Source of the DNA: Escherichia coli
GTDB lineage: Bacteria; Pseudomonadota; Gammaproteobacteria; Enterobacterales; Enterobacteriaceae
Length of the DNA: 64,000 bases
Strand: one strand, 5' to 3'
Assembly: GCF_013122565.1 (NCBI RefSeq)
Contig: NZ_CP053258.1
Shown here: positions 3,969 through 10,587 of the stretch, piece by piece
Numbering within the stretch: the first letter of the stretch is position 1
Layout of the letters: the number at the start of each line of letters is the position of its first letter
Program-made: the position numbers and the translations under genes
The notes under the pieces: generated by a model
The model's database searches: none
Told to the model about the DNA's origin: nothing
What the model saw: only the letters and a program-made list of their open reading frames with translations

Positions 3969-5498
3969 ATGTTATTACCCTGGTTAATACTAATCCCCTT
4001 TATCGGCGGCTTCCTGTGCTGGCAGACCGAACGCTTTGGCGTCAAGGTGCCGCGCTGGATCGCGCTGATCACCATGGGATTGACGCTGGCGCTGTCGCTG
4101 CAACTGTGGTTGCAGGGCGGTTATTCACTGACGCAATCCGCCGGAATTCCGCAGTGGCAGTCTGAATTCGACATGCCGTGGATCCCGCGTTTTGGTATCT
4201 CTATCCATCTCGCCATTGACGGGCTGTCGCTGCTGATGGTCGTGCTGACCGGTCTGCTCGGTGTGCTGGCGGTACTCTGTTCGTGGAAAGAGATCGAAAA
4301 ATATCAGGGCTTCTTCCACCTCAACCTGATGTGGATCCTGGGCGGCGTTATCGGCGTGTTCCTTGCCATCGACATGTTCCTGTTCTTCTTCTTCTGGGAA
4401 ATGATGCTGGTGCCGATGTACTTCCTGATCGCACTGTGGGGGCATAAAGCCTCTGACGGTAAAACGCGTATCACGGCGGCAACCAAGTTCTTCATTTACA
4501 CCCAGGCGAGTGGTCTGGTGATGTTGATCGCCATCCTGGCGCTGGTTTTTGTTCACTACAATGCGACCGGCGTCTGGACCTTCAACTATGAAGAGCTGCT
4601 GAATACGCCAATGTCCAGTGGTGTGGAATATCTGTTGATGCTGGGCTTCTTCATCGCATTTGCGGTGAAAATGCCGGTGGTTCCGCTGCATGGCTGGCTG
4701 CCGGATGCGCACTCACAGGCTCCGACTGCCGGTTCCGTTGACCTCGCGGGGATCTTGCTGAAAACCGCCGCTTACGGTCTGCTGCGTTTCTCCCTACCGC
4801 TGTTCCCGAACGCGTCGGCAGAGTTCGCGCCAATCGCTATGTGGCTGGGTGTTATCGGCATCTTCTACGGTGCGTGGATGGCCTTCGCCCAGACCGATAT
4901 CAAACGTCTGATCGCCTACACCTCGGTTTCCCACATGGGCTTCGTGCTGATAGCTATCTACACCGGCAGCCAGTTGGCCTACCAGGGCGCGGTAATTCAG
5001 ATGATTGCGCACGGCTTGTCGGCGGCGGGTCTGTTTATTCTTTGTGGTCAGCTTTATGAACGTATCCATACCCGCGACATGCGCATGATGGGCGGTCTGT
5101 GGAGCAAGATGAAATGGCTGCCAGCACTGTCGCTGTTCTTTGCGGTGGCAACGCTTGGGATGCCTGGCACCGGTAACTTCGTCGGCGAATTTATGATTCT
5201 GTTCGGCAGCTTCCAGGTTGTCCCGGTGATTACCGTTATCTCTACCTTTGGGCTGGTCTTTGCCTCTGTTTATTCGCTGGCGATGTTGCATCGTGCTTAC
5301 TTCGGTAAAGCGAAAAGCCAGATTGCCAGCCAGGAACTGCCTGGGATGTCGCTGCGTGAGCTGTTTATGATCCTGTTGCTGGTGGTGCTGCTGGTACTGC
5401 TGGGCTTCTATCCGCAGCCGATTCTGGATACCTCGCACTCCGCGATTGGCAATATCCAGCAGTGGTTTGTTAATTCCGTTACTACTACAAGGCCGTAA
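3969..5498 (+). CDS. nuoM: NADH-quinone oxidoreductase subunit M (antiporter-like)
   Basis: 509-aa membrane protein; follows a 230-bp gap after nuoL; synteny. Confidence 0.96.
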   Translation: MLLPWLILIPFIGGFLCWQTERFGVKVPRWIALITMGLTLALSLQLWLQGGYSLTQSAGIPQWQSEFDMPWIPRFGISIHLAIDGLSLLMVVLTGLLGVLAVLCSWKEIEKYQGFFHLNLMWILGGVIGVFLAIDMFLFFFFWEMMLVPMYFLIALWGHKASDGKTRITAATKFFIYTQASGLVMLIAILALVFVHYNATGVWTFNYEELLNTPMSSGVEYLLMLGFFIAFAVKMPVVPLHGWLPDAHSQAPTAGSVDLAGILLKTAAYGLLRFSLPLFPNASAEFAPIAMWLGVIGIFYGAWMAFAQTDIKRLIAYTSVSHMGFVLIAIYTGSQLAYQGAVIQMIAHGLSAAGLFILCGQLYERIHTRDMRMMGGLWSKMKWLPALSLFFAVATLGMPGTGNFVGEFMILFGSFQVVPVITVISTFGLVFASVYSLAMLHRAYFGKAKSQIASQELPGMSLRELFMILLLVVLLVLLGFYPQPILDTSHSAIGNIQQWFVNSVTTTRP

Positions 5499-5504
5499 AT
5501 CGCC

Positions 5505-6962
5505 ATGACAATAACTCCACAAAACCTGATCGCACTGCTACCGTTGCTGATCGTCGGCTTGACGGTGGTGGTTGTGATGCTCTCCATTGCGTGGCGACGC
5601 AATCATTTCCTCAACGCTACGCTCTCGGTTATTGGGCTTAACGCGGCGCTGGTTTCGCTCTGGTTTGTTGGCCAGGCGGGCGCTATGGACGTTACGCCGC
5701 TGATGCGCGTTGATGGTTTCGCCATGCTTTACACCGGGCTGGTATTGTTGGCGAGCCTCGCCACCTGTACTTTCGCCTACCCGTGGCTTGAAGGCTATAA
5801 CGACAACAAGGATGAGTTCTACCTGTTGGTGTTAATTGCCGCGCTGGGCGGGATCCTGCTGGCGAATGCCAACCATCTGGCGTCTCTGTTCCTCGGTATC
5901 GAACTGATCTCTTTGCCGCTGTTTGGCCTGGTCGGTTACGCTTTCCGCCAGAAACGTTCGCTGGAAGCCAGTATCAAATACACTATCCTTTCTGCCGCAG
6001 CGTCTTCTTTCCTGCTGTTCGGTATGGCGCTGGTGTATGCGCAGTCTGGCGACCTGTCGTTTGTCGCGCTGGGTAAAAACCTCGGCGACGGTATGCTCAA
6101 CGAGCCGCTGTTGCTGGCAGGTTTCGGCCTGATGATTGTTGGCCTTGGCTTCAAACTCTCTCTGGTGCCGTTCCACCTGTGGACGCCAGACGTATACCAG
6201 GGCGCGCCTGCGCCGGTTTCCACTTTCCTGGCGACGGCGAGCAAAATCGCTATCTTCGGCGTGGTGATGCGTCTGTTCCTTTACGCTCCGGTGGGTGACA
6301 GTGAAGCGATTCGCGTGGTGCTGGCGATTATCGCCTTTGCCTCTATCATCTTCGGTAACCTGATGGCACTGAGCCAGACCAACATCAAACGTCTGCTCGG
6401 TTACTCATCTATCTCTCACCTCGGCTATCTGCTGGTGGCGCTGATTGCGCTGCAAACGGGCGAGATGTCGATGGAAGCGGTAGGAGTTTACCTGGCCGGT
6501 TATCTGTTCAGCAGCCTCGGCGCGTTCGGCGTGGTCAGCCTGATGTCCAGCCCGTATCGTGGCCCGGATGCTGATTCCCTGTTCTCTTACCGCGGTCTGT
6601 TCTGGCATCGCCCGATCCTCGCGGCGGTGATGACGGTGATGATGCTGTCTCTGGCCGGTATCCCGATGACGCTGGGCTTTATCGGTAAGTTCTACGTGCT
6701 GGCGGTCGGTGTCCAGGCACACTTGTGGTGGCTGGTGGGTGCCGTGGTTGTCGGTTCGGCAATCGGCCTCTACTACTACCTGCGCGTGGCGGTGAGCCTG
6801 TATCTTCACGCCCCGGAACAACCGGGTCGCGATGCACCGTCAAACTGGCAGTACAGCGCGGGCGGTATCGTGGTGCTGATTTCTGCACTGTTGGTACTGG
6901 TGCTGGGTGTATGGCCACAACCGCTGATTAGTATTGTGCGTTTGGCAATGCCGCTGATGTAA
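5505..6962 (+). CDS. nuoN: NADH-quinone oxidoreductase subunit N (antiporter-like)
   Basis: 485-aa membrane protein; last gene of the nuo operon; followed by a hairpin plus T-run. Confidence 0.96.
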
Positions 6963-6983
6963 TCTGTTAGTTTGTAAGTCAGA

Positions 6984-7012
6984 AAGCCGCCGACATGTTC
7001 GGCGGTTTTTTT
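6984..7012. terminator. Rho-independent terminator after nuoN (A-run/hairpin/T7; plausibly bidirectional with convergent yfbM)
   Basis: aaagCCGCCGAcatgtTCGGCGGttttttt read directly; coordinates +/-2. Confidence 0.7.
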
Positions 7013-7027
7013 GGTGCCCTGACACCA

Positions 7028-7531
7028 TCACCCAACAATAACCGTCAGCGCATGATTCCCTTGTTGCAGCATACGTCTGTACGCACTAATCAGCTTTTCC
7101 ATATCGAGCATAATCGAGGCAAAGAGTTGCCCCTCTAACTCTTCTGAAAAGGTCACTCCCGGATAAATCTCCATTTCATTGAGTCGCTTAATGGAAAACT
7201 GTTTACGCAGCACATTCCGGTCAAGTGCCTCCAGACGGTCGATGGTGGCGGCTAACTCCTGATTCCATGTCAATCCCAGGAAACCATCTATGCCATCTTC
7301 GAGGCTGTGTTCACCAAGCACGGCACGACTCAGCGGATCATTCTTCGCGGGATCAAAAGCAGAGGTGCCTGTCAGCCCAAAGTGTAAAAAATCCCAGCGT
7401 TTATCAATATCCAGTCGGCGTAATCCTGAAAGCGTGTCATGTATATTATCCATCAAAGGTTTTTCAGTAGACTCAAGCAGTTGATTAATCTTTTCTGAGT
7501 CAATTTCTGCAAAATAGCCAATCATTCCCAT
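7028..7531 (-). CDS. yfbM: DUF1877-family protein YfbM
   Basis: 167-aa translation MGMIGYFAEIDSEKINQLLE... recognised as YfbM. Confidence 0.85.
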   Translation of the reverse strand: MGMIGYFAEIDSEKINQLLESTEKPLMDNIHDTLSGLRRLDIDKRWDFLHFGLTGTSAFDPAKNDPLSRAVLGEHSLEDGIDGFLGLTWNQELAATIDRLEALDRNVLRKQFSIKRLNEMEIYPGVTFSEELEGQLFASIMLDMEKLISAYRRMLQQGNHALTVIVG

Positions 7532-7633
7532 TTATTTTTCCTCCGTTGAATTTCATGTTTCACATCTTAAAACAGACGAGGGAAAATAAAATGTGCATGT
7601 TGCTTTTTCTGGACCCGCCTCGAGAAATTTTTA

Positions 7634-8605
7634 TTATTTACTGTTGTATAACAAAGTTATAACTCCATCCACTACCTGAGCCATTTTCTGATAATTCAAT
7701 CTGTCTGCGGTATCACCGGGCAAGTGGTATTGTTTATTACGATAAAAAGCGGTGTCAGTAATCATTACGGCGGGAATATCGTGTTGCCAATAATTAAGGT
7801 GATCAGAGAAATCAATACCGGGAATAAACCCTGGGGCATTCATAGAATAAACAGATAAATCCCGGGATGACAACAATGCCGCTTTTACCTGACGAACGGC
7901 GTTGATATCCTGCATTCTGCCGACCACGGCAATAAAGTCTCCCCGATCGGGATAAAGCCAGGACATTGCCGGGTAAGGGTAATTCTGGCTTCCAGGCGCA
8001 GAGTCGTAATAGCCAATCATCTCCAGTGCTATCATTAATTTGACTGGACGCTCAAGCGAAGCTGCATGCACCGCGCTCCCCATTTCATCGCTACGAAAGA
8101 AGGGCGGTTCTTCCGACGCATAGGCGACCAGCTGCACGCCTGTTTTCGGTACTTGCTGATGTAACAAACGTGCCAGTTCGAGTAATCCTGCCACACCGCT
8201 GGCGTTATCATCCGCGCCCGGCGTATAGGTCAATTGATCGTTTTCATAACTGCTGGCAGAGTCATAGTGCGCACCAATAATAATCAGCGGTCCATCGGTA
8301 GGACCATAATCAGCAACAATGTTTTTGTAGGGGCCACCCGTAATGGGGACGTCCAGCGAGGTAACTCTGGCACCGCTACTGACAAAGACCTCTTTTATAT
8401 ACTCTGCGGACCTATTCAGATTATCAATATTGTCGGCACTACGTGGATGCACAGTTTGTGTAAGATAACGAACTGTTTTTTCTAATTGCTCAGGACTTGC
8501 GTGTCGGGGCGTTGACGGTAATGCATTGACCCAAGGTTGGTAAAAAATAATCATAGGGAGTGAAAACACAAATAATACAATAAAAGCAAAGATTATTTTT
8601 TTCAT
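7634..8605 (-). CDS. yfbL: M28-family zinc aminopeptidase-like protein YfbL, N-terminal membrane anchor/signal
   Basis: M28 metal-ligand motifs (GAHYDS, GADDNASG, YASEEPPFF); start set at the ATG (MKKIIF...) two codons inside the track ORF, which begins with TTG. Confidence 0.85.
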   Translation of the reverse strand: MKKIIFAFIVLFVFSLPMIIFYQPWVNALPSTPRHASPEQLEKTVRYLTQTVHPRSADNIDNLNRSAEYIKEVFVSSGARVTSLDVPITGGPYKNIVADYGPTDGPLIIIGAHYDSASSYENDQLTYTPGADDNASGVAGLLELARLLHQQVPKTGVQLVAYASEEPPFFRSDEMGSAVHAASLERPVKLMIALEMIGYYDSAPGSQNYPYPAMSWLYPDRGDFIAVVGRMQDINAVRQVKAALLSSRDLSVYSMNAPGFIPGIDFSDHLNYWQHDIPAVMITDTAFYRNKQYHLPGDTADRLNYQKMAQVVDGVITLLYNSK

Positions 8606-8742
8606 ATGCAAATTATTAATGGGTTGCGTTGTTGAATCATTACTTGCTATGGGTTTCGATATTGTATTTTATTAAGATTAGCAGGATTATACAAAGAGTA
8701 TATTTTATGTCTGGTGCCTGAGTTTATTTAAAAGGATTTTAT

Positions 8743-10470
8743 ATGCGAAATAAAAATATAATCATGTTGCTTATGAGTAGTTTGATTTTGTCAGGATGTG
8801 GGCCGGAACCTGAGAATAAGGAAAGTCAGCAACAACAACCCAGTACTCCCACAGAGCAGCAAGTGCTTGCCGCGCAGCAAGCTGCAATAAAAGAGGCTGA
8901 GCAAAGCGCCGCCGCCGCGAAAGCCTTGGCCCAGCAAGAAGTGCAACAATATTCAGACAAACAGGCTTTACAGGGGCGATTGCAGGAAGCGCCAACATTT
9001 GCAAGAGCGGCTAAAGCAAAAGCTACACATATCGCAAATCCAGGAACCGCTCGCTACCAGCAGTTCGATGATAATCCGGTTAAGCAGGTAGCGCAAAATC
9101 CGTTGGCGACGTTTAGCCTTGACGTCGACACTGGCAGTTATGCGAATGTACGGCGTTTCCTCAATCAAGGGCTGTTACCTCCGCCAGACGCTGTGCGGGT
9201 GGAGGAGATAGTCAATTATTTCCCGTCTGACTGGGATATCAAAGACAAACAATCTATTCCGGCCACTAAGCCAATACCTTTCGCTATGCGCTACGAACTG
9301 GCACCTGCGCCGTGGAATGAACAGCGAACATTGCTGAAAGTTGATATCCTGGCGAAAGATCATAAAAGTGAAGAGTTACCAGCTTCTAATCTGGTCTTTC
9401 TTATCGACACTTCTGGTTCAATGATTTCTGATGAACGTTTGCCACTTATCCAGTCTTCGTTGAAATTATTGGTCAAAGAACTTCGTGAGCAGGATAACAT
9501 TGCCATCGTGACCTACGCTGGCGACACCCGTATTGCGTTGCCTTCTGTCTCCAGTAGTCACAAGGCGGAAATTAATGCCGCAATTGATTCGCTGGATGCC
9601 GAAGGCAGTACCAATGGCGGTGCCGGGCTGGAACTGGCTTATCAGCAGGCGGCGAAGGGGTTTATTAAGGGCGGTATCAATCGCATTTTATTGGCCACTG
9701 ACGGTGACTTTAACGTTGGTATTGACGATCCAAAATCGATTGAATCAATGGTCAAAAAACAGCGGGAGTCCGGTGTTACTCTGTCGACGTTTGGCGTGGG
9801 GGATGACAATTACAACGAGGCAATGATGGTGCGAATTGCCGATGTTGGCAACGGTAACTACAGCTACATTGATACCCTCTCTGAAGCGCAGAAAGTATTG
9901 AACAGTGAAATGCGGCAGACGTTGATTACCGTAGCAAAAGATGTCAAAGCGCAAATTGAGTTTAACCCCGCGTGGGTAACGGAATACCGTCAGATTGGTT
10001 ATGAAAAGCGCCAACTTCGGGCGGAAGATTTTAATAACGACAACGTTGATGCGGGGGATATTGGCGCAGGCAAACATATAACGTTGTTATTTGAATTAAC
10101 GCTGAACGGGCAAAAAGCATCAATTGATAAGTTACGCTATGCCCCGGATAACAAATCAGCGAAATCGGACAAAACGAAAGAACTGGCCTGGTTAAAAATT
10201 CGCTGGAAATACCCGCAGGGAAAAGAAAGTCAGTTAGTTGAACTCCCGCTGGGGCCAACAATAAACGCGCCCTCTGAAGATATGCGTTTTCGCGCAGCAG
10301 TAGCTGCATATGGGCAAAAGTTACGCGGTTCTGAATACCTGAACAATACCTCCTGGCAGCAAATCAAACAGTGGGCTGAGCAGGCAAAAGGGGATGATCC
10401 ACAGGGTTACAGGGCGGAATTTATTCGCTTGATTGAACTGGCGGATGGTGTGACTGACATCGGTCAGTGA
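8743..10470 (+). CDS. yfbK: von Willebrand factor A-domain lipoprotein YfbK
   Basis: Lipobox LSGC after signal peptide; Gln/Ala-rich linker; MIDAS motif DTSGS (LVFLIDTSGSM); 575 aa. Confidence 0.85.
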   Translation: MRNKNIIMLLMSSLILSGCGPEPENKESQQQQPSTPTEQQVLAAQQAAIKEAEQSAAAAKALAQQEVQQYSDKQALQGRLQEAPTFARAAKAKATHIANPGTARYQQFDDNPVKQVAQNPLATFSLDVDTGSYANVRRFLNQGLLPPPDAVRVEEIVNYFPSDWDIKDKQSIPATKPIPFAMRYELAPAPWNEQRTLLKVDILAKDHKSEELPASNLVFLIDTSGSMISDERLPLIQSSLKLLVKELREQDNIAIVTYAGDTRIALPSVSSSHKAEINAAIDSLDAEGSTNGGAGLELAYQQAAKGFIKGGINRILLATDGDFNVGIDDPKSIESMVKKQRESGVTLSTFGVGDDNYNEAMMVRIADVGNGNYSYIDTLSEAQKVLNSEMRQTLITVAKDVKAQIEFNPAWVTEYRQIGYEKRQLRAEDFNNDNVDAGDIGAGKHITLLFELTLNGQKASIDKLRYAPDNKSAKSDKTKELAWLKIRWKYPQGKESQLVELPLGPTINAPSEDMRFRAAVAAYGQKLRGSEYLNNTSWQQIKQWAEQAKGDDPQGYRAEFIRLIELADGVTDIGQ

Positions 10471-10490
10471 TGACTTTTTAGCAAACTATG

Positions 10491-10524
10491 TTCGACCAGT
10501 CAGCATATTTGCTGACTGGTCGAA
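10491..10524. terminator. Perfect 14-bp inverted repeat between convergent yfbK and elaD (bidirectional terminator candidate)
   Basis: TTCGACCAGTCAGCatatttGCTGACTGGTCGAA. Confidence 0.65.
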
Positions 10525-10587
10525 TTGACTAACAATGATGTTAACTTACTCTTTTTCCTGATGCTCTATTTTGGGGTTGTGAGTGTT

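Follow-up and report, generated by a model that had tools for sequence, protein, structure and literature searches.

Whether yfbK, yfbL and yfbM, which adjoin one another in a 64-kb stretch of Escherichia coli DNA (the window), make up one functional system or are merely neighbours is the question that this locus raises. It had been suggested from the letters of the window that a vWA lipoprotein and a divergently encoded peptidase may form a functional pair, or with a downstream DUF1877 gene a trio. The three predicted open reading frames are present in the ORF list and in the RefSeq annotation (Table 1), and RefSeq labels the matching stretch of E. coli genomes (identity up to 98.2%) as yfbK, yfbL and yfbM. 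The database matches of the three proteins are strong and they are no chance features. The description of the trio as poorly characterised also holds, as these are annotated Escherichia genes without an assigned function; the genes themselves, the ArnB/ITIH-like fold resemblance and the ECF link discussed below have all been published previously. The region is a low-GC variable island flanked by nuoN and rbn. A repeat search of the locus found the hairpin between the convergent yfbK and elaD genes and nothing further, and a search of positions 6500-12500 against Rfam at a permissive threshold gave chance-level matches only. The hairpin, which is probably a bidirectional terminator, is kept in the O104:H4 allele despite the deletion of yfbK.

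Table 1. Features of the yfbM-yfbL-yfbK locus, with positions counted from the first letter of the window.
Feature	Position	Strand	Description	Basis
yfbM	7028..7531	-	167-aa cytoplasmic DUF1877 protein, without signal sequence	ORF, Pfam
yfbL	7634..8605	-	323-aa M28 di-zinc aminopeptidase-like protein	ORF, Pfam, motifs
YfbL predicted metal ligands	H113 8269-8267; D132 8212-8210; E166 (see next row); E195 8023-8021; H269 7801-7799	-		
YfbL predicted catalytic residue E165	E165/E166 8113-8108	-		
YfbL N-terminal hydrophobic segment / membrane anchor	8596-8540		residues 4-22	
Alternative yfbL start	8611		TTG, two codons upstream of the ATG	
Divergent yfbL-yfbK spacer	8606..8742		137 bp, 28% GC; bounded by yfbL ATG at 8605 and yfbK ATG at 8743	sequence reading
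Palindrome TATAC-N5-GTATA	8688-8702		overlaps the candidate yfbL promoter	
Candidate sigma-70-like yfbL promoter	-35 8713-8708; -10 8691-8686		10/12 positions	consensus match alone
yfbK	8743..10470	+	575-aa lipoprotein	ORF, Pfam, motifs
YfbK signal peptide and lipobox	8743-8799		lipobox L16-S-G-C19, Gly20 at +2	
YfbK tether	8800-9042		residues 20-100	
YfbK vWF_A N-domain (PF12450)	9046-9339		residues 102-199	Pfam
YfbK vWA domain	9388-9891	+	residues 216-383; MIDAS DTSGS at 9406-9420	Pfam
YfbK_C (PF12034)	9919-10446		residues 393-568	Pfam
Inverted repeat between yfbK and elaD	10491..10524		perfect 15 bp, 4-nt loop; probably a bidirectional terminator	

The reading of YfbK as a lipoprotein with a Gln/Ala-rich linker and an intact MIDAS proved correct in every part. 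Its N-terminus, MRNKNIIMLLMSSLILSGC, begins with a positively charged n-region, continues into a hydrophobic core and reaches a lipobox (defined as [LVI][ASTVI][GAS]C inside the first ~40 residues) ending at Cys19; every allele from Escherichia and Superficieibacter keeps this lipobox. The protein would be exported and lipid-anchored at Cys19, and by the +2 rule Gly20 would direct it through the Lol pathway to the outer membrane, where it would sit in the inner leaflet. Next comes a tether roughly 80 residues long, in which Ala accounts for 19 and Gln for 16 of 81 residues, with a predicted 43-residue helix at residues 38-80, and the allelic length differences around the tether map to the AAAKAAAD(AK) part of this helix. 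The tether is expected to carry a compact core of three parts, in which the N-domain is followed by a vWA domain whose MIDAS is complete and by YfbK_C, a beta-sandwich/helical domain. PF12450 (E 7e-33, 112.9 bits, cut-off 25), VWA (E 1e-22, 81.4 bits, cut-off 23.8) and PF12034 (E 2e-67, 227.4 bits, cut-off 25) are all present in this order above their gathering scores, which places the protein in the YfbK family, and an AlphaFold2 model was obtained with a pLDDT of 87.1 and a pTM of 0.81. The MIDAS consists of D222-T-S-G-S226 with T290 and D320 from later loops. The original prediction had staked itself on conservation of these residues in orthologues, and D222, S224, S226, T290 and D320 are indeed invariant in an alignment of 60 sequences (41-85% identity), together with ~55 further positions of the core.

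A search with the YfbK protein returned only E. coli variants and was uninformative on distant context. The family defined by the YfbK core is very large, with 27,943 representative clusters at E<=1e-3 and 7,189 at E<=1e-30. Among the 150 nearest representatives listed, the core is C-terminal in nearly all, and what precedes it varies: an anti-sigma-like N-terminus in 77 (75 with a transmembrane helix), another cytoplasmic N-terminus followed by a transmembrane helix in 27, a lipobox in 18 and a signal peptide or anchor in 20. The anti-sigma-like N-termini were not recognised by Pfam at E<=0.001; the NCBIfam anti-sigma model NF052375 matches those of two relatives, P0140 (E 8.5e-12) and P0142 (E 1.7e-10), below its curated cut-off. 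An ECF sigma gene adjoins the yfbK-like gene in all six informative non-enteric loci (L015, L016, L017, L008, L024 and L025), a set that leaves out P0121 and P0122, whose contigs are too short to display neighbours. Two of these six are operons of the lipoprotein type, in which the yfbK-like gene is followed by the sigma gene and by a gene for a single-pass membrane protein of ~300 aa. The ECF289 anti-sigma factor has been described as a combination of DUF3520 and a vWF domain (Casas-Pastor et al. 2021, PMC7826278), and the arrangement seen among the relatives matches this published type. In most bacteria the core either makes up the extracytoplasmic portion of a membrane-bound anti-sigma factor or belongs to a lipoprotein whose operon also encodes an ECF sigma factor and a single-pass membrane protein.

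The YfbK of the window departs from the ECF289 type in that its N-terminus is a lipoprotein signal and no ECF sigma gene adjoins it. When 32 anti-sigma-like N-termini were combined into a profile, this gave no match on the protein, and tblastn and profile searches found no ECF sigma-like ORF anywhere within the window. Since a sigma/anti-sigma partner is absent nearby, YfbK of Escherichia appears to be an orphan binding module; it is most plausibly that sensor module in an orphan form, tethered to the outer membrane. Because the core occurs in anti-sigma and ECF-operon settings in most bacteria, it is most likely a metal-ion-dependent binding and sensing head for an envelope ligand, a role extrapolated from the gene neighbourhoods of six loci with relatives 45-55% identical.

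The M28 zinc-ligand motifs and the N-terminal anchor that had been noticed in YfbL are both there, the motifs as a full set. Peptidase_M28 matches the protein with E 2e-25 (90.1 bits, cut-off 21.3), and the motifs GAH113YD, GAD132DNASG, SE165E166, LE195MIG and SDH269 provide the complete co-catalytic ligand set and the catalytic Glu; each ligand is unchanged in 112-114 of the 114 homologues compared. The N-terminal hydrophobic segment recurs in 105 of these 114, and is followed by a QPxVxPxP motif in the sequences inspected. YfbL also aligns to the Vibrio leucyl aminopeptidase (1AMP/3B3T) and to 2EK8. It would be a di-zinc M28 aminopeptidase, anchored in the membrane in type II orientation and facing the periplasm, and its intact ligand set suggests that it trims the N-termini of envelope peptides or proteins. 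The most plausible reading is a periplasmic aminopeptidase that works independently of YfbK. In K-12, deletion of yfbL gives a complemented, N4-specific phage resistance; the main text of the same phage N4 screen names yfbL and yfbO, not yfbK (preprint 10.1101/2025.09.29.679331).

YfbM is covered by DUF1877 over its full length (E 2e-34, 119.6 bits, profile positions 1-162 of 163) and matches the solved structure 1RYL (E 7e-107), placing it in the DUF1877/YfbM family; a homologue search returned Escherichia and Shigella sequences only. Of 5426 E. coli genomes, 5355 carry an intact yfbM, and the gene is under strong constraint (dN/dS 0.02-0.07). YfbM is a cytoplasmic protein unrelated to YfbK and YfbL, and it behaves independently of their genes.

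Distribution speaks to the pairing of yfbK with yfbL. Among 5,426 complete E. coli genomes, yfbK is kept in 46% and yfbL in 61%; the two genes are dispensable and repeatedly lost in nature. The combinations seen are all three genes, yfbK and yfbL without yfbM, yfbK without functional yfbL, yfbL without yfbK, and yfbM without either. In one possible explanation, which we regard as unlikely though worth weighing, YfbK and YfbL work together as an envelope module: the outer-membrane vWA head captures a substrate or partner, the inner-membrane M28 peptidase processes the captive or YfbK itself, and the shared spacer expresses both. The AT-rich divergent spacer of 137 bp is real. It contains the yfbK ribosome-binding site (AAAAGGA), which is invariant in an alignment of eight lineages, and the palindrome, which is partly conserved there. 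From Escherichia out to Superficieibacter, where amino-acid identity is down to 62-66%, the two genes keep their divergent arrangement; both products are predicted to face the periplasm, and the YfbK tether could in principle, judging from the model, span it. Presence in E. coli is nested, with about 2516 genomes carrying both genes and about 0 carrying yfbK alone (the two-by-two table has 2516 genomes with yfbK and the yfbL catalytic core against 2513 with yfbK). One large lineage, with the O104:H4/O157/BL21-type allele, has lost both genes by two separate deletions, and the two are alike in dN/dS and GC content.

However, each gene is also found intact without the other. An intact yfbK accompanies a deleted yfbL in E. 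whittamii and a yfbL stopped by a nonsense codon (W216*) in the E. albertii type strain, and in one enterobacterium yfbK lies beside a yfbM remnant with no yfbL. Conversely, ~780-900 E. coli genomes have yfbL without yfbK, as does locus L012. Annotated, intact copies of yfbL accompany at least two distinct yfbK deletions. The association within E. coli reflects a handful of deletion events and therefore carries little statistical weight. The divergent arrangement was seen only in Escherichia and Superficieibacter, where the flanking genes are likewise syntenic; the neighbourhood scan with a single YfbK protein used exact peptide patterns and covered 10 loci, Salmonella, Citrobacter and Klebsiella lying outside it. 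Farther away, no M28 gene was found near any of six distant YfbK-family loci, and no vWA or DUF1877 neighbour at either of two distant YfbL-family loci. The absence of yfbK from the main text of the N4 screen also speaks against a module. In genomes that lack yfbK, the dN/dS of yfbL is raised in three from E. coli (0.34-0.42) and not in L012 (0.12), a mixed result that therefore provides no usable evidence of coupling.

The expected co-occurrence of yfbK and yfbL is thus largely contradicted, by separate losses and by the lack of pairing at six and two distant loci. Of the predicted trio, or vWA-protease pair, the adjacency stands, and the functional unit is not well supported: yfbK and yfbL have each been lost without the other in different Escherichia lineages, yfbM goes its own way, and the three genes are not kept and lost together or conserved beyond background synteny. 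The adjacency of yfbK, yfbL and yfbM is real and fairly ordinary, and they do not behave as one system. Some functional coupling is still compatible with the near-complete retention of yfbL with yfbK, the double inactivation and the pairing as deep as Superficieibacter. We favour, with a confidence somewhat above even, three real and separately acting genes: an orphan sensing YfbK, an independent aminopeptidase YfbL and an unrelated YfbM, with yfbK and yfbL dispensable.

Retention at the levels given above, several independent deletions, a nonsense codon, frameshifts, the recurrent pseudogenisation of yfbK in Salmonella and the absence here of the sigma/anti-sigma partners of the relatives could also be expected if yfbK and yfbL were functionless remnants of an older system now being lost from Escherichia. 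Their dN/dS (0.12-0.22) is above that of the neighbouring genes, as decay might produce, but it is far under 1 with dS up to 0.85. Every MIDAS residue and zinc ligand is retained, and so is the YfbK lipobox in all Escherichia alleles. Moreover, deletions have consequences in K-12: the complemented N4 resistance for yfbL and, for yfbK, a low conjugation yield and lost rifampin-induced persistence (both from screens only). We consider decay of functionless genes improbable.

The N4 phenotype, together with the variability and low GC content of the yfbK-yfbL locus, brings up a link with phages: the locus might be a defence system or a determinant of a phage-receptor pathway, and phage pressure would then account for its patchy distribution. 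However, loss of yfbL protects against phage, and yfbL is therefore a host factor and no defence gene; yfbK is missing from the main text of that screen. YfbK, YfbL and YfbM have no PADLOC match at E<=0.01, and their identity as a defence system was rejected. We give a phage-linked locus very little credence. A further conjecture, to which we assign a low probability, is that YfbK is an outer-membrane sensor freed from an ancestral ECF sigma pathway and rewired with YfbL on an envelope or surface feature required by N4, so that losses would be selected by phages or hosts and would not be neutral decay.

The YfbK core is among the larger uncharacterised extracytoplasmic modules of bacteria: it numbers thousands of clusters at 50% identity, its metal site is invariant, and it is tied to ECF sigma signalling. 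The E. coli copy is tractable, yet it is an orphan and often lost, and signalling is therefore better studied in a species that retains the lipoprotein gene in one operon with the sigma-factor and membrane-protein genes. As accessory genes, yfbK and yfbL are missing from the common laboratory and pathogenic lineages BL21/REL606, O157:H7 and O104:H4, to which K-12 phenotypes such as the N4 resistance of the yfbL deletion are not transferable.

Among known systems, the ECF289-type anti-sigma factors (PMC7826278) share with YfbK the core of PF12450, VWA and PF12034 at ~45-55% identity, including the invariant MIDAS, whereas YfbK starts with a lipoprotein signal and a Gln/Ala tether where those proteins have a cytoplasmic anti-sigma domain and a transmembrane helix, and its 64 kb contain no ECF sigma gene. 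The lipoprotein-type homologues P0126 (L017) and P0139 (L025) have the lipobox, low-complexity linker and core of YfbK at 51-52% identity; unlike them, yfbK of Escherichia lacks both downstream partners and converges on elaD (cheV in Superficieibacter). ITIH1, ArnB and the Sec23/24 core (vWA, beta-sandwich and helical region) have the fold in common with YfbK but not the family, with 13-18% sequence identity and other compartments and partners. The closest solved vWA domains by sequence are those of BatA/BatB from Bacteroides aerotolerance (4JDU, E 2.8e-7; 3IBS), which have a MIDAS like that of YfbK, although the Bat proteins are encoded in the bat operon and have neither PF12450 nor YfbK_C. 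YfbM and PDB 1RYL are essentially one protein with no notable difference. The catalytic core of YfbL aligns with the Vibrio proteolyticus leucyl aminopeptidase (AAP, 1AMP) and other M28 co-catalytic zinc aminopeptidases and keeps the His, Asp, Glu-Glu, acidic and His series, but its fourth ligand is Glu195 instead of Asp, and it has an N-terminal membrane anchor and the conserved QPxVxPxP motif and no pro-domain.

The three genes yfbM, yfbL and yfbK were found in the window where the original prediction had placed them (see the table), and the Pfam matches of all three proteins were strong. The genes are annotated in the E. coli chromosomes that match this stretch, and YfbM is essentially the protein of the solved structure 1RYL. 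According to the ORF list, they are flanked by nuoM and nuoN on one side and by elaD, rbn and elaA on the other. The GC content is 0.40-0.49 in the yfbKLM region and 0.34-0.38 in elaD, and is higher in the nuo genes (0.53-0.59). No close match to the window was found among the complete E. coli genomes: the best identities were 98.9% for nuoM-nuoN and 98.2% for yfbKLM, which is 90-95% identical in most of these genomes. These identities suggest that the window represents a divergent Escherichia lineage together with a fast-evolving island.

Positions of the genes and other features in the window and in related loci
Feature	Position	Strand	Assignment or remark
nuoM-nuoN	3969-6962		
nuoN to yfbM gap	6963-7027		65 nt
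yfbKLM region	7028-10470		
yfbM	7028-7531	-	ORF list; Pfam DUF1877
yfbL	7634-8605	-	ORF list; Pfam Peptidase_M28
Alternative yfbL start	8611		TTG, two codons upstream
Spacer palindrome	8688-8702		TATAC-AAAGA-GTATA
yfbK	8743-10470	+	ORF list; Pfam PF12450 N-domain, VWA, YfbK_C
elaD	10588-11763	-	Intact 391-codon ORF; ElaD/SseL-type deubiquitinase
E. albertii yfbL	L004 618-1589	-	Stop at codon 216
Non-enteric locus	L016 7460-11989		Gene of the M23 protein beside a YfbK relative
Non-enteric locus	L017 6001-9361		Lipoprotein/sigma/membrane protein
Non-enteric locus	L025 5001-8327		Lipoprotein/sigma/membrane protein

The K-12 genes yfbN, yfbO and yfbP are missing from the window between nuoN and yfbM; they were found in 948 of 5,426 complete E. 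coli genomes at an identity of at least 99%, and Superficieibacter has YfbP and YfbN homologues at the equivalent position. On the other flank, strains 33F4, O104:H4 and ETEC4077 have a frameshifted elaD, most of the gene is deleted in BH100N, and it is missing in E. albertii, E. whittamii and a locus with yfbL that lacks yfbK (L012). In Superficieibacter and L028, a cheV-like gene follows yfbK in its place.

The features that the original prediction had read from the proteins were recovered by reading the translations directly. YfbK has a lipobox (LSGC, Cys19), a segment rich in Ala and Gln (residues 20-100) and an intact MIDAS motif (DTSGS, residues 222-226). The Gly at +2 after the lipidated Cys predicts, by the established +2 rule, sorting to the outer membrane. 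In a confident AlphaFold2 model (pLDDT 87.1, pTM 0.81), computed from an alignment of 60 sequences, the chain is disordered behind the lipid anchor, the Gln/Ala-rich segment forms a long helix (38-80), and the residues from about 100 to 575 make up a compact core. Residues D222, S224, S226, T290 and D320 are invariant in 60 sequences of 41-85% identity, as are about 55 further positions in the same alignment; therefore, a lack of MIDAS conservation among orthologues, which would have counted against the proposal, was not seen. The expected M28 zinc ligands of YfbL (H113, D132, E165/E166, E195 and H269) are shared by 112-114 of 114 homologues, and the protein can be aligned to zinc aminopeptidases of the co-catalytic type, among them Vibrio AAP. 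The N-terminal hydrophobic segment, taken earlier for an anchor, is present in 105 of the 114 and is followed by a QPxVxPxP motif in the homologues inspected, suggesting an uncleaved membrane anchor with a periplasmic enzyme part.

The presence of each gene was counted in 5,426 complete E. coli genomes at a coverage of at least 80%, giving 5,355 genomes for yfbM, 3,292 for yfbL and 2,513 for yfbK. With a synthetic query in which part of the yfbL catalytic core was joined to a piece of yfbK, about 2,516 genomes had both, about 780-900 had only yfbL, practically none had only yfbK and about 2,000 had neither. This nested pattern resembles coupling, yet it comes down to few events. The O104:H4/O157/BL21-type allele has an internal deletion in yfbK, its yfbL has frameshifts and a distinct deletion of 326 bp, and at least two distinct yfbK deletions occur among the yfbL-only genomes. 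E. whittamii has kept yfbK and lost yfbL. The yfbL of the type strain of E. albertii (NBRC 107761) has a premature stop (AMSW to AMS*) beside intact yfbK and yfbM, which could be a real pseudogene or a draft-assembly error. One further enterobacterium has a frameshifted yfbK adjoining a yfbM remnant, without yfbL, and Superficieibacter retains the divergent yfbL-yfbK pair without yfbM. Published Salmonella comparisons list yfbK among the disrupted genes in several lineages. In genomes keeping both genes, dN/dS was 0.13-0.22 for yfbK and 0.12-0.22 for yfbL; it was 0.02-0.07 for yfbM and 0.01-0.05 for nuoN. Thus yfbK and yfbL are accessory genes, either of which can persist without the other, and yfbM is independent of both. 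Among the YfbM homologues P0429-P0449, Shigella flexneri has a shortened form of 107 aa that is widespread (more than 1000 contigs) and departs from the conservation of yfbM, which is strict elsewhere.

The original prediction is thus supported in part: it was correct in describing the genes, motifs and spacer, but not in grouping them functionally. That yfbK and yfbL work as a pair is unlikely in our judgement, since each is kept without the other and no M28 gene was found near YfbK relatives in six distant loci; the idea keeps a small weight because the divergent arrangement survives, the E. coli pattern is nested and both genes were lost in one lineage. YfbL homologues of 50-58% identity are widespread in Proteobacteria, and those in the Lysobacter and Taklimakanibacter loci have no vWA or DUF1877 neighbour. 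The spacer between the two genes is, as proposed, 137 bp long and AT-rich (28% GC). Its palindrome, which may be an operator, overlaps the predicted yfbL -10 hexamer, is kept in several Escherichia lineages and is degenerate in E. albertii and Superficieibacter.

The published phenotypes and observations given here come from screens or preprints throughout. Deletion of yfbL in K-12 gave resistance to phage N4, which was complemented, and deletion of yfbO, which is likewise reported as necessary for N4 infection, gave the same resistance (10.1101/2025.09.29.679331). Screens found a low conjugation yield and a loss of rifampin-induced persistence upon yfbK deletion, and an LldR genomic-SELEX peak lies inside yfbK. 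A study of how TolA/TonB evolved reports vWA proteins that are tethered to the inner membrane and resemble YfbK in fold. No PADLOC model matched YfbK, YfbL or YfbM.

The YfbK core (PF12450, VWA and YfbK_C) defines a very large family, with matches in 27,943 representative clusters at E<=1e-3, and forms the C-terminus of almost every one of the 150 nearest representatives (46-73% identity). The N-terminus is anti-sigma-like (…LTAYALGELD…ER…VE…) in 77 of these, 75 having a transmembrane helix near residue 90; it is another short cytoplasmic segment with a transmembrane helix in 27, a lipobox in 18, a signal peptide or anchor in 20, and other or partial in 8. An NCBIfam anti-sigma model matches the anti-sigma-like N-termini at E values of about 1e-10 to 1e-12, under its curated cut-off. 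In each of the six loci whose neighbouring genes could be read, an ECF sigma gene adjoins the YfbK relative; two of these relatives are of the lipoprotein type, with the order yfbK-like gene, sigma gene and gene for a single-pass membrane protein of about 300 aa. This third protein, a candidate anti-sigma factor, had no Pfam or NCBIfam match; its periplasmic linker is rich in Ala and Pro, and its C-terminal part carries a conserved motif some 40 residues long (WL..IR.LR..G.L..A...L..FRK.YPDY). In L016, an anti-sigma-type YfbK relative is followed by the gene of a 1,509-aa protein that combines a Peptidase_M23 domain with many Ig domains. No other protease-like neighbour of a YfbK-family gene was seen, and this one is not of the M28 type. 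No ECF sigma gene was found within the 64-kb window, nor an anti-sigma domain in its YfbK.

We infer that the ancestral task of the YfbK family was sensing for an ECF sigma pathway, of which the Escherichia YfbK would be an orphan, tethered to the outer membrane, whose MIDAS would bind an envelope ligand by an acidic group; YfbL would act independently, trimming N-termini in the periplasm. The three genes, the proteins related to them in fold and the connection to ECF sigma factors have already been published; in the ECF classification, the ECF289 anti-sigma factors consist of DUF3520 fused to a vWF domain (PMC7826278). To these, the present analysis adds a population picture of accessory genes lost independently, the probable orphan status of the Escherichia YfbK, and a recurrent lipoprotein/sigma factor/membrane protein operon among YfbK relatives.
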